NCBI RefSeq assembly: GCF_058153355.1
Contig: NZ_CM177019.1
DNA: 64,000 nucleotides
Direction: 5' to 3' (one strand)
Below the pieces are notes generated by a model. The model was not told the DNA's origin and made no database searches. It saw nothing but the letters and a program-made list of their open reading frames with translations. The translations under genes were made by a program, and so were the position numbers. Of this stretch, positions 22,518 to 29,736 are shown piece by piece. Each line of letters begins with the position of its first letter. Positions within the stretch are counted from its first letter, which is position 1.

Positions 22518-22649
22518 ATGAAAAAGAAACCGGTTGCGCAGTCGGAGCGTCAGCATACTTTGCTGGAAAATCCGTGTGCTTATGGGTTGTTATCGCAGTC
22601 CCAGGCTGCGATAGTCGTTAACTGTTTTACACTTAATAAAATAATTTGA
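22518..22649 (+). CDS. yqgB: Small protein YqgB, upstream ORF ending 8 nt before speA
   Basis: 43 aa [43 protein letters not shown]. Confidence 0.6.
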
Positions 22650-22657
22650 GGTTCGCT

Positions 22658-24634
22658 ATGTCTGACGACATGTCTATGGGTTTGCCTTCGTCAGCGGGCG
22701 AACACGGTGTACTACGCTCCATGCAGGAGGTTGCAATGAGCTCCCAGGAAGCCAGCAAGATGCTGCGTACTTACAATATTGCCTGGTGGGGCAATAACTA
22801 TTATGACGTTAACGAGCTGGGCCACATTAGCGTGTGCCCGGACCCGGACGTCCCGGAAGCTCGCGTCGATCTCGCGCAGTTAGTGAAAACTCGTGAAGCA
22901 CAGGGGCAGCGTCTGCCTGCACTGTTCTGTTTCCCACAGATCCTGCAGCACCGTTTGCGTTCCATTAACGCCGCGTTCAAACGTGCGCGGGAATCCTACG
23001 GCTATAACGGCGATTACTTCCTCGTTTACCCGATCAAAGTTAACCAGCACCGCCGCGTGATTGAATCCCTGATTCATTCAGGCGAACCGCTGGGCCTGGA
23101 AGCCGGTTCCAAAGCTGAGTTGATGGCGGTACTGGCGCATGCTGGCATGACCCGTAGCGTCATCGTCTGCAATGGTTATAAAGACCGCGAATATATCCGC
23201 CTGGCATTAATTGGCGAGAAGATGGGCCATAAGGTCTATCTGGTCATTGAGAAGATGTCAGAAATCGCCATTGTGCTGGATGAAGCAGAACGTCTGAATG
23301 TCGTTCCTCGTCTGGGCGTGCGCGCGCGTCTGGCGTCTCAAGGTTCTGGCAAATGGCAGTCTTCTGGCGGGGAAAAATCGAAGTTCGGCCTGGCGGCGAC
23401 TCAGGTACTGCAACTGGTTGAAACCCTGCGTGAAGCCGGACGTCTCGACAGCCTGCAACTGCTGCACTTTCACCTCGGTTCGCAGATGGCGAATATTCGC
23501 GATATCGCCACGGGCGTTCGTGAATCCGCGCGTTTCTATGTGGAACTGCACAAGCTGGGCGTCAATATTCAGTGCTTTGATGTCGGCGGCGGTCTGGGTG
23601 TGGACTATGAAGGTACTCGTTCGCAGTCCGACTGTTCAGTGAATTACGGCCTCAATGAATACGCCAACAACATCATTTGGGCGATTGGCGATGCGTGTGA
23701 AGAAAATGGTCTGCCGCATCCGACAGTAATCACCGAATCAGGTCGTGCGGTGACTGCGCATCACACCGTGCTGGTGTCGAATATCATCGGCGTGGAACGT
23801 AACGAATACACGGTGCCGACCGCGCCAGCAGAAGACGCACCGCGCGCGCTGCAAAGCATGTGGGAAACCTGGCAGGAGATGCACGAACCGGGAACTCGCC
23901 GTTCTCTGCGTGAATGGTTACACGACAGCCAGATGGATCTGCACGACATTCATATCGGCTATTCTTCAGGCACTTACAACCTGCAAGAACGCGCGTGGGC
24001 TGAGCAGCTTTATCTGAGCATGTGTCACGAAGTGCAAAAGCAGCTGGATCCGCAAAACCGCGCACATCGCCCGATTATCGACGAATTGCAGGAACGTATG
24101 GCGGACAAAATGTACGTCAACTTCTCGCTGTTCCAGTCGATGCCGGACGCATGGGGGATCGACCAGTTGTTCCCGGTTTTGCCGCTGGAAGGGCTGAATC
24201 AAGTTCCGGAGCGGCGCGCCGTGCTGCTGGATATTACCTGTGACTCTGACGGTGCCATCGACCACTATATTGATGGTGATGGTATTGCCACAACAATGCC
24301 TATGCCGGAGTACGATCCAGAGAATCCGCCGATGCTCGGTTTCTTTATGGTCGGCGCATATCAGGAGATCCTCGGTAACATGCACAACCTGTTTGGTGAT
24401 ACCGAAGCGGTTGATGTGTTCGTCTTCCCTGACGGCAGCGTAGAAGTGGAACTGTCTGACGAAGGCGATACCGTGGCGGACATGCTGCAATATGTACAGC
24501 TCGATCCGAAAACGCTGTTAACCCAGTTCCGTGATCAAGTGAAGAAAACCGATCTTGATGCTGAACTGCAACAACAGTTCCTGGAAGAGTTCGAGGCAGG
24601 TTTGTACGGTTATACCTATCTTGAAGATGAATAA
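22658..24634 (+). CDS. speA: Biosynthetic arginine decarboxylase
   Basis: 658 aa from [45 protein letters not shown]. Confidence 0.95.
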
Positions 24635-24779
24635 TTAAGATTATTCCGCTATCGGGTCGATTTATTTACGTAAATCGGCCCGCTTTCTTTTTATATATTC
24701 TTAAAAATAATTTAGCTGCTTTCCTTATTGAATAATCTCCCTACAATCGCTGCATTAATTAAATGCAGAGGGAACGGTT

Positions 24780-25511
24780 ATGAAAAAATGGAAAGTACGT
24801 AGCGCGTTGGTGGCATTAGTCGTGCTGCTGGCCGGTTGTTCCAGTAATGCGCAGTATAATAGCAGTGCATCGGGCAATGTCGGCACCGCCTGGGGTGGGG
24901 ATGTGCACTCAACGGTTCAGGGCGTATCTGCTGAACGAGCCTGGCGCGATCCGGCAGAGATGATCGTTATTAGTTATTCGACTAATGTTCCTTCCGGCTA
25001 CGACCGCGTTTATAGCATTCGTATTAACGAACTTGAATATGCTATTCGCGATGGTAATTTTAATTCTCTACCTATTACGCGGGTTTATAATTCATCAGGT
25101 AAAGAACTACGCTATATAGTCCATGCCAGAGTAGGAATGAATTACCAATTATATGTCCGCAATTACAGTCGTAACACCAACTACGAGATCGTTGCGACAG
25201 TTGATGGCCTGGATGTTCTCAATGGTAAACAAGGTTCCCTGAATAACAACGGCTATATTGTGAATGCCGGGGATTCGTTGGCGATTAAAGGATTCCGCAA
25301 AGATAAACATACCGAAGCGGCTTTTCAGTTCGCCAACGTTGCTGATTCCTACGCAGCCAATTCGGCGCAAGGCGATGTGCGTAATACCGGTGTAATCGGC
25401 TTTGCCGCCTTTGAATTACAAGGCCCGGCGCAAAACGCGCTGCCACCGTGCTCTGGACAAGCGTTTCCGGCGGACAACAATGGCTATGCGCCGCCACCGT
25501 GTCGGAAATAG
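24780..25511 (+). CDS. Predicted lipoprotein of unknown function, between speA and speB (not present at this position in K-12 as far as I recall)
   Basis: 243 aa; signal peptide + lipobox MKKWKVRSALVALVVLLAGC; RBS gaggga upstream; two C-terminal Cys. Confidence 0.6.
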   Translation: MKKWKVRSALVALVVLLAGCSSNAQYNSSASGNVGTAWGGDVHSTVQGVSAERAWRDPAEMIVISYSTNVPSGYDRVYSIRINELEYAIRDGNFNSLPITRVYNSSGKELRYIVHARVGMNYQLYVRNYSRNTNYEIVATVDGLDVLNGKQGSLNNNGYIVNAGDSLAIKGFRKDKHTEAAFQFANVADSYAANSAQGDVRNTGVIGFAAFELQGPAQNALPPCSGQAFPADNNGYAPPPCRK

Positions 25512-25576
25512 TAACCTCGCTTGATGCCTCGCCCATTTAAGGCGATAATTAGCACAAAATTGTGTTTCGCAAATCC

Positions 25577-25619
25577 AACCCTTCCTCGTCGGGCCTAACG
25601 ACGCGGAAGGGTTTTTTTA
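25577..25619 (+). terminator. Rho-independent terminator between lipoprotein ORF and speB
   Basis: aacccttcc...ggaagggtt hairpin + T7. Confidence 0.6.
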
Positions 25620-25646
25620 TATCGACTTTGTAATAGGAGTCCACCC

Positions 25647-26567
25647 ATGAGCACCTTAGGTCATCAATACGATAACTCACTGGTTTCCAACGCCTTTGGT
25701 TTTTTACGCCTGCCGATGAACTTCCAGCCGTATGACAGCGATGCTGACTGGGTAATTACCGGCGTGCCGTTCGATATGGCCACTTCTGGTCGTGCGGGTG
25801 GACGCCACGGTCCAGCGGCGATCCGTCAGGTTTCGACGAATCTGGCCTGGGAACACAACCGCTTCCCGTGGAATTTCGACATGCGCGAGCGTCTGAACGT
25901 GGTGGACTGCGGCGATCTGGTGTATGCCTTCGGCGATGCTCGTGAGATGAGCGAGAAGCTGCAGGCGCATGCCGAAAAGCTGCTGGCTGCCGGTAAGCGT
26001 ATGCTCTCCTTCGGTGGTGACCACTTTGTTACCCTGCCGCTGCTGCGTGCTCATGCGAAGCATTTCGGCAAAATGGCGCTGGTACACTTTGACGCCCACA
26101 CCGATACCTATGCGAACGGTTGTGAATTTGACCACGGCACCATGTTCTATACCGCGCCGAAAGAAGGTCTGATCGACCCGAATCACTCCGTACAGATTGG
26201 TATTCGTACCGAGTTTGATAAAGACAACGGCTTTACCGTACTGGACGCCTGCCAGGTGAACGATCGCAGCGTGGATGACGTTATCGCCCAGGTGAAACAG
26301 ATTGTAGGTGATATGCCAGTTTACCTGACCTTTGATATCGACTGCCTGGATCCTGCTTTCGCGCCGGGCACCGGTACGCCGGTGATTGGCGGCCTGACCT
26401 CCGATCGCGCCATTAAACTGGTACGCGGCCTGAAAGATCTCAACATCGTTGGGATGGACGTAGTGGAAGTGGCTCCGGCATACGATCAGTCGGAAATCAC
26501 CGCTCTGGCAGCAGCGACGCTGGCGCTGGAGATGCTGTATATTCAGGCGGCGAAAAAGGGCGAGTAA
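25647..26567 (+). CDS. speB: Agmatinase
   Basis: 306 aa [43 protein letters not shown]. Confidence 0.95.
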
Positions 26568-27467: not shown

Positions 27468-27744
27468 GTTTTCTCTTCCGCACAAGGTCAGGATTATTCT
27501 AAAAATGCACCGTTTGCAGGTGAATCGATGCTCAGTCTCAGTATAAGGAAAAGCGCAGCGGACGGGCGAGCAGATTGCGCAACATGCGAGCATGATCCAG
27601 AGATTTCTGAAGCGGCAAAAGGATGTTCCATGTACATGACGCGCGGCTTGCGGTAAATTGTTGGCAAATTTTCCGGCGTAGCCCAAAACGCGCTGTCGTC
27701 AAGTCGTTAAGGGCGTGCCCTTCATCATCCGATCTGGAGTCAAA

Positions 27745-29736
27745 ATGTCCTCACGTAAAGAGCTTGCCAATGCTATTCGTGCGCTGAGCATGGACGCAGT
27801 ACAGAAAGCCAAATCCGGTCACCCGGGTGCCCCTATGGGTATGGCTGACATTGCCGAAGTCCTGTGGCGTGATTTCCTGAAACACAACCCGCAGAATCCG
27901 TCCTGGGCTGACCGTGACCGCTTCGTGCTGTCCAACGGCCACGGCTCCATGCTGATCTACAGCCTGCTGCACCTCACCGGTTACGATCTGCCGATGGAAG
28001 AACTGAAAAACTTCCGTCAACTGCATTCCAAAACTCCGGGCCACCCGGAAGTGGGTTACACCGCTGGTGTGGAAACCACTACAGGTCCGCTGGGTCAGGG
28101 TATTGCCAATGCAGTCGGTATGGCGATTGCAGAAAAAACGCTGGCGGCGCAGTTTAACCGTCCGGGCCACGACATCGTCGACCACTACACCTACGCCTTC
28201 ATGGGCGACGGCTGCATGATGGAAGGCATCTCCCATGAAGTTTGCTCTCTGGCGGGTACGCTGAAGCTGGGTAAACTGATTGCGTTCTACGATGACAACG
28301 GTATCTCTATCGATGGTCACGTTGAAGGCTGGTTCACCGACGACACCGCAATGCGTTTCGAAGCTTACGGCTGGCACGTTATTCGCGGCATTGACGGTCA
28401 TGACGCGGCATCCATCAAACGCGCTGTAGAAGAAGCGCGCGCTGTGACTGACAAACCGTCTCTGCTGATGTGCAAAACCATCATTGGTTTCGGTTCTCCG
28501 AATAAAGCCGGTACTCACGACTCCCACGGTGCGCCGCTGGGCGACGCTGAAATTGCCCTGACCCGCGAACAGCTGGGCTGGAAATATGCACCGTTCGAAA
28601 TCCCGTCTGAAATCTATGCTCAGTGGGATGCGAAAGAAGCAGGCCAGGCGAAAGAATCCGCATGGAACGAGAAATTCGCTGCTTACGCCAAAGCTTATCC
28701 GCAGGAAGCCGCTGAATTTACCCGCCGTATGAAAGGCGAAATGCCGTCTGACTTCGATGCCAAAGCGAAAGAATTCATCGCTAAACTGCAGGCTAATCCG
28801 GCGAAAATCGCCAGCCGTAAAGCGTCTCAGAATGCGATTGAAGCGTTCGGCCCGCTGTTGCCGGAATTCCTCGGCGGCTCTGCTGACCTGGCACCGTCTA
28901 ACCTGACCCTGTGGTCTGGTTCTAAAGCAATCAACGAAGATGCTGCGGGTAACTACATCCACTACGGTGTTCGCGAGTTCGGTATGACCGCGATTGCTAA
29001 CGGTATCTCCCTGCACGGTGGCTTCCTGCCGTACACCTCCACCTTCCTGATGTTCGTGGAATACGCACGTAACGCCGTACGTATGGCTGCGCTGATGAAA
29101 CAGCGTCAGGTGATGGTTTACACCCACGACTCCATCGGTCTGGGCGAAGATGGCCCGACTCACCAGCCGGTAGAGCAGGTCGCTTCTCTGCGCGTGACCC
29201 CGAACATGTCTACATGGCGTCCGTGTGACCAGGTTGAATCTGCAGTAGCGTGGAAATACGGCGTTGAGCGTCAGGACGGCCCGACTGCGCTTATCCTCTC
29301 CCGTCAGAACCTGGCGCAGCAGGAACGTACTGAAGAGCAGCTGGCAAACATCGCGCGCGGTGGTTATGTGCTGAAAGACTGTGCCGGTCAGCCGGAACTG
29401 ATCTTCATCGCTACCGGTTCTGAAGTTGAACTGGCGGTTGCTGCCTACGAAAAACTGACTGCTGAAGGCGTGAAAGCGCGCGTGGTTTCCATGCCGTCTA
29501 CCGACGCATTCGACAAGCAGGATGCGGCTTACCGTGAGTCTGTACTGCCGAAAGCGGTTACTGCACGCGTTGCGGTGGAAGCTGGCATTGCTGACTACTG
29601 GTACAAGTATGTTGGCCTGAACGGTGCTATCGTCGGCATGACCACCTTCGGTGAATCTGCTCCGGCAGAGCTGCTGTTTGAAGAGTTCGGCTTCACCGTT
29701 GACAACGTTGTTGCGAAAGCAAAAGAACTGCTGTAA
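27745..29736 (+). CDS. tktA: Transketolase 1
   Basis: 663 aa from [32 protein letters not shown]. Confidence 0.95.

Follow-up and report, generated by a model that had tools for sequence, protein, structure and literature searches.

An outer-membrane-type lipoprotein gene between speA and speB of Escherichia coli, apparently ancestral in the Enterobacteriaceae and probably lost by the K-12 lineage

The speA-speB interval

The 64,000-nucleotide stretch of Escherichia coli DNA considered here (contig NZ_CM177019.1 of assembly GCF_058153355.1, referred to as the window) contains, between the polyamine genes speA and speB, a gene for a lipoprotein of 243 amino acids, which will be called gene X. 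All three genes lie on the same strand, and the gap between speA and speB measures 1012 bp (24635..25646) versus 137 bp in genomes of the K-12 type, in keeping with the short K-12 spacer mentioned in the initial annotation of this DNA. The explanation that best accounts for the locus, and that is held with good confidence, is that X is the ortholog of ECs_3813 and belongs to a large family of proteobacterial lipoproteins, that it has been inherited vertically beside speA since before the enterobacterial genera split, and that X disappeared from the K-12 lineage, which comprises about one third of the sequenced E. coli, in a single deletion or allele replacement of approximately 875 bp. The same event would also have taken T1, the terminator of speA itself, and the putative promoter of X. 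The features of the locus, all on the plus strand, are the following:

22658..24634, plus strand: speA, biosynthetic arginine decarboxylase, the upstream neighbour (658-amino-acid RefSeq form, 99.5% amino acid identity to O157 SpeA)
24653..24692, plus strand: T1, terminator-like hairpin and T-tract directly 3' of the speA stop codon
24720..24747, plus strand: putative X promoter, as read from the sequence
24768..24772, plus strand: Shine-Dalgarno sequence GAGGG, 7 nt before the ATG of X (AGGGA or AAGGA kept across genera)
24780..25511, plus strand: lipoprotein gene X (ECs_3813 ortholog), 243 amino acids, ATG start
24780..24839, plus strand: signal peptide of X with the lipobox L-A-G-C, its Cys20 invariant in 35 homologs
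25521..25549, plus strand: σ70 promoter-like element TTGATG-17-GATAAT, from a promoter scan, between the X stop codon and T2
25577..25618, plus strand: T2, hairpin and U7 tract found by folding, ending 29 nt before the speB ATG
25647..26567, plus strand: speB, agmatinase, the downstream neighbour (100% amino acid identity to O157 SpeB)

The longest open reading frame (ORF) at speA starts at a TTG codon at 22646, 12 nt 5' of the annotated ATG at 22658.

Gene X and its product

The initial annotation had described a 243-amino-acid ORF at 24780..25511 with a lipoprotein signal peptide (LLAGC), a ribosome-binding site (RBS) of its own, a mature protein rich in Asn, Tyr and Ser, and two C-terminal cysteines. 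All of these traits were recovered, with GAGGG as the RBS and Cys224 and Cys241 as the two cysteines, and the composition of the mature protein (Ala 11.2%, Asn 10.3%, Gly 9.4%, Ser 8.9%, Tyr 6.2%) shows that Ala and Gly are abundant too. The N-terminus, MKKWKVRSALVALVVLLAG followed by C, combines a positively charged n-region, a hydrophobic h-region and a lipobox conforming to [LVI][ASTVI][GAS]C, so that it has the sequence hallmarks of a bacterial lipoprotein, with Cys20 as the lipid-anchor cysteine. Beyond the signal peptide (residues 1-19) and the anchor, the protein can be divided into a disordered tether (approximately residues 21-32), an all-beta core (residues 33-213) and a Pro-rich tail (residues 214-243) that bears Cys224 and Cys241.

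The gene itself is not new, as it is already annotated in E. coli O157:H7 Sakai as ECs_3813 (NP_311840.1, 'lipoprotein') and in RefSeq as WP_000758914.1, under labels that vary between 'hypothetical protein', 'lipoprotein' and 'membrane protein'. ECs_3813 likewise lies between speA and speB, has the same length and lipobox and shares 97.5% of its amino acids with X of the window, from which it differs only by allelic changes clustered around residues 104-111. More generally, X is 93-97.5% identical at the amino acid level to the Escherichia copies and has identical flanks, which fits its membership of the ECs_3813 ortholog group. The initial annotation had left room for the ORF being an annotated, conserved gene at this site in K-12; it is annotated in O157:H7, but K-12 is without it. 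A proteome supplement for O157 lists SpeB and not the X protein.

Conservation and selection

X is clearly a genuine gene, with an ORF far beyond what chance would produce. Against other Escherichia alleles, the ratio of nonsynonymous to synonymous substitution rates (dN/dS) is 0.06-0.09, to be compared with about 0.01 for speA and at most 0.006 for speB. A lack of homologs, which the initial annotation had named, together with a lack of expression, as the sign of a spurious ORF, is not what was found: a word-index search returned 287 homologs, and an exhaustive HMMER search against 1.84 billion representatives of clusters formed at 50% identity returned 2896 cluster representatives at E<=1e-3, of which 848 reached E<=1e-10. 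An alignment of 35 diverse members of the family contains 33 invariant columns, including Cys20, W38, R53, E136, D142, R173 and N202, and within it the core YEIVATVDGLDVL...GFRK...AAF.F...YAAN...GVIG is strongly conserved; this conservation extends across Alpha-, Beta- and Gammaproteobacteria.

Distribution in E. coli

Of 5426 complete E. coli genomes, 3556 (65%) carry X, and for 3550 of these copies the match covers 80% or more of the gene. Among named strains, the carriers include O157:H7, O25b:H4-ST131 and the avian pathogenic strains APEC O1 and APEC O78, and the gene is absent from K-12-like laboratory strains and from a B derivative. A further 1865 genomes share a single, uniform junction of the K-12 type, the rows sampled being 98.8-100% identical.

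Inactivated forms of the gene also occur. One complete genome carries an insertion of the insertion sequence IS1 in X (NZ_OZ546938.1, 1590377..1591885; hit H32), a truncated form of 174 amino acids comprises 448 member sequences (clusters P0030 and P0044 are listed among the inactivated forms), and fragments are found in Shigella dysenteriae (UniProt A0A090NIM7 and A0A0A6ZYV3).

Gene order across the Enterobacteriaceae

In a scan of one genome per species from GTDB, relatives of X were detected in 271 species genomes. Within the Enterobacteriaceae, X lies between speA and speB in all the loci retrieved except that of one Citrobacter sp. isolate. The arrangement is shared by Escherichia, Citrobacter, Kluyvera, Klebsiella, Intestinirhabdus, Phytobacter, Kosakonia, Entomohabitans and an Enterobacter sp.; in Escherichia it comprises E. 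coli, E. whittamii and two cryptic lineages, and in E. albertii the copy lies at a contig end with speB downstream. The identity of the protein to the query ranges from 95% in Escherichia down to 53% in Entomohabitans, and position and orientation are constant in at least 10 genera, with a divergence that is broadly lower in closer relatives. Since the gene holds the same position in at least 10 genera, the order speA-X-speB is read from these comparisons as ancestral in the enterobacteria, and the K-12 form as derived. The statement of the initial annotation that a lipoprotein gene 'occupies' the intergenic space thus stands as far as the presence of a real lipoprotein gene is concerned, but not in its implication of a spacer that is normally empty.

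Those Salmonella enterica genomes that have X present a variant of this order, in which X follows directly 3' of speA and an islet encoding a GntR regulator, a mannitol dehydrogenase and a zinc alcohol dehydrogenase lies between X and the expected position of speB (loci L086 and L087, 4001..8732). The S. enterica representative of the species scan may lack X, because the 80 best loci of that scan included none from Salmonella. In the exceptional isolate, Citrobacter sp. 18056, the X homolog (63% identity) adjoins neither speA nor speB. No integrase- or IS-like gene was recognised among the flanking genes examined, an inspection that did not extend to direct repeats at the boundaries.

The K-12 region between the two genes has in common with the window a TTGAAx-17-GATAAT element, T2 with its U-tract and the speB RBS, with T2 being identical in sequence, but it is 875 bp shorter and is devoid of T1, the putative X promoter and X.

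Terminators and promoter-like elements around X

Two terminator-like hairpins bracket X. T1 consists of a hairpin with a 13-bp stem (24653..24682) followed by CTTTCTTTTT, and it was called by a terminator scan. Its folding energy is -18.4 kcal/mol (z = -4.1), and none of 200 shuffled sequences was as stable. The hairpin is kept, with compensatory changes in the stem, in 11 other Enterobacteriaceae loci; it was found only in genomes that bear X and is absent from the K-12 form. Downstream of it, a plausible promoter for X can be read at 24720..24747, comprising a -35-like hexamer TTTCCT (24720..24725), a spacer of 16 nt and a -10 hexamer TACAAT (24742..24747), with an AT-rich upstream region (33.8% GC from T1 to the -10 hexamer). 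A -10-like element (TACAAT, TACTAT, TACCAT or TATTAT in most loci) is present at the same place across genera. Because T1, the AT-rich promoter region, the RBS, the ORF and T2 follow one another in series, X would form a transcription unit of its own.

T2 is an interrupted hairpin of 14 bp with a U7 tract and a folding energy of -24.4 kcal/mol (z = -5.1 versus shuffled sequences). It is common to genomes with and without X. In an alignment of 10 sequences, taken from Escherichia and from eight further genera or species of enterobacteria, pairing is complete (140 of 140 cells) and compensatory changes occur at two pairs, although the covariation evidence is modest because 10 of the 14 pairs never vary. 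Term-seq data (Adams et al. 2021; PMC7815308, Supplementary files 1 and 3) place an RNA 3' end 30 nt 5' of speB, at position 3083827 of the minus strand of MG1655, and this end maps on the exact T2 sequence, by count inside the U-tract. T2, with its hairpin, its U-tract and a mapped 3' end, has the attributes of an intrinsic (Rho-independent) terminator and is an active terminator in K-12, conserved and proximal to speB. The downstream terminator that the initial annotation had placed at 25577..25619 is therefore real as a hairpin with a U7 tract, but it does not belong to X: a terminator private to the gene was rejected because the same sequence is found in genomes without X, K-12 included. 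The same study reports a Rho-dependent 3' end early in speA in K-12, linked to the yqgB upstream ORF (PMC7815308).

The block 5' of speB that includes T2 is kept across the Enterobacteriaceae, K-12 included (window 25521..25646; L002 3247..3372; loci L009-L022), in the order TTGAAx-17-GATAAT, approximately 20 variable nucleotides, the T2 hairpin, a U7-8 tract and the speB RBS. The inner stem and loop of T2, CGTCGGGCCTAACGACG, are nearly invariant, and the hairpin is missing in Phytobacter and Kosakonia. An Rfam search of 24400..25900 gave no match. Both hexamers of the element at 25521..25549 (TTGATG-17-GATAAT in the window) are conserved across genera and in K-12 in the form TTGAAx-17-GATAAT, which makes it a candidate speB-proximal promoter, and the combination of a promoter-like element with an active terminator directly 3' of it resembles a leader that would control speB by transcription attenuation. 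As regards an operon, the three genes share a strand, but terminator-like hairpins lie on both sides of X. Owing to the additional T1, transcription that starts at the speA promoter would meet two terminators before speB in genomes with X, and one in K-12. The suggestion of the initial annotation that X may affect the co-transcription of speB is plausible.

Family, fold and predicted function of the X protein

That the protein has no recognisable motif, as the initial annotation had remarked, agrees with all the profile searches. Pfam gave no match to X even at E<=10, nor to 12 diverse, duplicated or permuted relatives at E<=0.1; NCBIfam returned only weak matches to lipoprotein signal peptides and PHROGs only matches at the level of the signal peptide; PADLOC and a sequence-profile search of the PDB gave no match. 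The closest description available is that of an unnamed family of proteobacterial 'outer membrane lipoproteins' (UniProt A0A1Q4PKQ4, F0F1A2, A0A099F8Q5), for which there is no Pfam or NCBIfam model and with which X shares the signal peptide, the lipobox, an LGTxWGE strand, the conserved core and an AFPxD...YAPPP tail. The members differ in their C-terminus, where the enterobacterial proteins have a pair of cysteines and most others a PPxY sequence, and in their genomic context, which is specific to each clade.

An AlphaFold2 model, built with the 35-sequence alignment, predicts X confidently as an all-beta sandwich, with a mean predicted local distance difference test score (pLDDT) of 82.5. 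Most of the core (residues 33-213) exceeds 90, the C-terminal tail is less confident, and residues 16-30, which fall below 50, look like a disordered tether in the model. Foldseek searches of AFDB50 retrieved only members of the family, labelled 'Lipoprotein', 'Outer membrane lipoprotein' or 'Uncharacterized', and a fold search of an AFDB sample retrieved remote matches to the fungal DUF7918 and to MATH domains. This likeness to DUF7918 and to MATH/TRAF-like beta-sandwiches is one of fold, without a match at the sequence level, and is too weak for any function to be transferred; a literature search found no function for DUF7918.

The C-terminal cysteines are either both present or both absent in every aligned sequence except P0085, and this co-occurrence suggests a Cys224-Cys241 disulfide. 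Where relatives are longer, the extra length is due to low-complexity linkers, to a tandem duplication or to a circular permutation, and none has a fused catalytic domain. Among distant relatives, P0235 (465 amino acids) is a tandem duplication of the whole domain. P0254 is circularly permuted, with the N-terminal LGTxFGE strand segment placed after the core, and this permutation is consistent with the packing of that strand onto the sandwich.

From these features, a path for the protein can be proposed. The precursor would be exported by Sec and then lipidated at Cys20 by Lgt, LspA and Lnt. Under the '+2 rule', a lipoprotein without Asp after the lipidated Cys is sorted to the outer membrane by the Lol system, and as residue +2 of X is Ser21 and not Asp, the mature protein is predicted to be sorted there. 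At the membrane, a disordered tether of approximately 12 residues would hold the predicted all-beta sandwich domain of approximately 180 residues, with the Pro-rich C-terminal tail possibly pinned by the Cys224-Cys241 disulfide. Given that there is no signature of a catalytic domain and that the only fold neighbours are of the MATH or DUF7918 type, X might, with low confidence, have a role in the cell envelope that is not enzymatic but one of binding or scaffolding. None of the databases and papers reached assigns a function to X.

Genomic context outside the Enterobacteriaceae

Outside this family, no speA or speB homolog was found near X in the flanks fetched (up to 5 kb on each side). In Variovorax and relatives, the homolog lies inside the histidine operon, in the order hisG-hisD-X-[122-aa protein]-hisC-hisB; in Providencia it lies between metJ and a gene for an OmpW/Adr-like barrel, in Enterobacillus 3' of hybE, and in Trabulsiella 5' of a gene for a YnfC-like lipoprotein. 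The his operon is a second instance of the family within a biosynthetic operon. The secreted protein of 122 amino acids, which has a weak Pfam match to Rap1a, accompanies X only in Variovorax and Xenophilus (L003 6001..7205 and about 22 similar loci).

After gene picking filtered by the G+C content of third codon positions (GC3), no neighbour recurred across clades. A 'conserved neighbour' that emerged from an all-versus-all clustering of ORFs from 84 loci consisted of antisense ORFs in high-GC DNA, and three downstream ORFs of approximately 245 amino acids, considered as partners of X, were not recognisably related to one another (an OmpW/Adr-like barrel, a weak TPR match, and no match, respectively). 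As for immunity to the type VI secretion system (T6SS) of the Rap1a/Tai type, none of the loci examined had a neighbour that could be recognised as effector-like.

Alternative explanations

The presence of X between two polyamine genes can be read as a sign that the protein takes part in polyamine metabolism, through binding, sensing or traffic of agmatine or putrescine, as the third member of a speA-speB operon whose loss alters polyamine physiology in K-12. The adjacency to speA, kept across at least 10 enterobacterial genera, speaks for it, as do the common strand of the three genes and the position of the Salmonella islet, which separates X from speB and not speA from X. However, conserved terminator hairpins part X from both neighbours, and the T2 hairpin coincides with an active RNA 3' end in K-12; outside the Enterobacteriaceae the contexts are unrelated (his operon, metJ/OMP, hyb) and no speA or speB homolog was seen in the flanks; and K-12 is without X, with a polyamine pathway that we take to be fully functional. 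Since the adjacency is conserved in one family only and X is bracketed by terminators, this explanation is unlikely, and the adjacency is better described as conserved synteny than as a demonstrated functional link. Less likely still is that X is an islet acquired horizontally by some E. coli lineages, possibly an orphan lipoprotein related to immunity or antagonism. Such an origin would agree with the patchy distribution in E. coli (65%), with a GC3 below that of the neighbours, with a protein that evolves about 6-10 times faster than SpeA in terms of dN, with the unrelated contexts of the family in other taxa and with the pairing, in Variovorax, with a small protein that weakly resembles the T6SS immunity protein Rap1a. 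It is contradicted by the synteny, namely the same position and orientation in at least 10 genera with a divergence that broadly tracks relatedness, and a recent insertion or mobile islet was rejected on these grounds. Moreover, the genomes without X have one junction, the loci examined contain no recognised integrase- or IS-like neighbour (boundary direct repeats not having been searched for), the Rap1a-like protein is a neighbour in Variovorax and Xenophilus only, no effector is adjacent, PADLOC finds no match, and X is under strong purifying selection. The least probable alternative, to the point of being hardly tenable, is that of a spurious ORF or a decaying pseudogene without function. 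The lack of a characterised homolog and of literature, the absence of X from one third of E. coli and the existence of truncated forms (the 174-amino-acid cluster, the S. dysenteriae fragments and the copy disrupted by IS1) would be expected of such a sequence, but a dN/dS of 0.06-0.09, the match of 3550 of the 3556 E. coli copies over at least 80% of the gene, the deep conservation of the core in three proteobacterial classes and the confident structure prediction are not, and the conservation statistics led to its rejection.

The explanation preferred here, vertical inheritance of X at speA followed by loss in K-12, is in turn opposed by several observations. The spacer of approximately 55 nt between the speA stop codon and T2 in K-12 shows an identity of only about 60% to its counterpart in E. 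coli with X, in spite of flanks that are 96-100% identical (L002 3236..3300 versus window 25512..25576), so the K-12 allele is not a simple, recent deletion of the present allele with X. Between O157 and a K-12-like genome, divergence is also slightly higher (2-4%) over the 1-1.5 kb that flank the junction on each side. Taken as they stand, the sequences suggest a haplotype that is old or was imported, and not a fresh deletion. The GC3 of X is 46.7%, versus 60.6% for speA and 64.2% for speB, which could reflect an ancient foreign origin or low expression. A consensus promoter scan did not call the putative X promoter, because its -35 hexamer matches at only three of six positions. Finally, the role as a binding module is a default drawn from negative evidence.

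Significance of the locus

The points raised by the locus are modest and neither overturns anything, the presence of X having long been annotated. One concerns the blind spot of annotation centred on K-12, which affects a gene that some two thirds of the complete genomes of E. coli, O157:H7, ST131 and APEC strains among them, contain: X has probably remained unstudied because it was lost in K-12. As a conserved gene under purifying selection, with a confidently predicted fold, it is a reasonable candidate for screens in envelope biology. A stronger proposal, that the family (about 2,900 clusters at 50% identity in Proteobacteria and beyond, with no Pfam, NCBIfam or PDB entry) has a distinct and as yet undescribed envelope function, left unstudied because K-12 deleted X, is put forward only as a doubtful possibility. 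The other point concerns the junction itself, which is atypical in K-12; in most Enterobacteriaceae, speA has a terminator of its own and a separate gene precedes the speB leader. If K-12 has indeed lost one of the two terminators between speA and speB, the coupling of speB to speA may differ between K-12-type and wild-type E. coli, and conclusions on speA-speB co-transcription based on K-12 may not transfer to pathogenic strains, because the K-12 junction would not be the ancestral one.

Lineage of the window and labelling of contigs

The window comes from a rare, divergent lineage of E. coli. Only 7-8 of the 5426 complete genomes reach at least 99% identity to it, among them strains 2013C-4282, 2020CK-00188 and R32_14_1F, and nearly all the others lie at 95-99% (24400..25900 and 27715..29736). 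The synonymous divergence (dS) between the window and O157 is 0.15-0.2 in speA, X and speB, and the lineage may be similar to the cryptic clades.

Two contigs bear labels that do not fit their content. The match of the query to one labelled Chryseobacterium sp. 18061 is identical to its match to a Citrobacter sp. 18056 contig, both contigs coming from one study (L014 versus L015), which is probably an issue of labelling or contamination, and one labelled 'Mycobacterium sp. KBS0706' (L052) bears an X homolog of the proteobacterial type.

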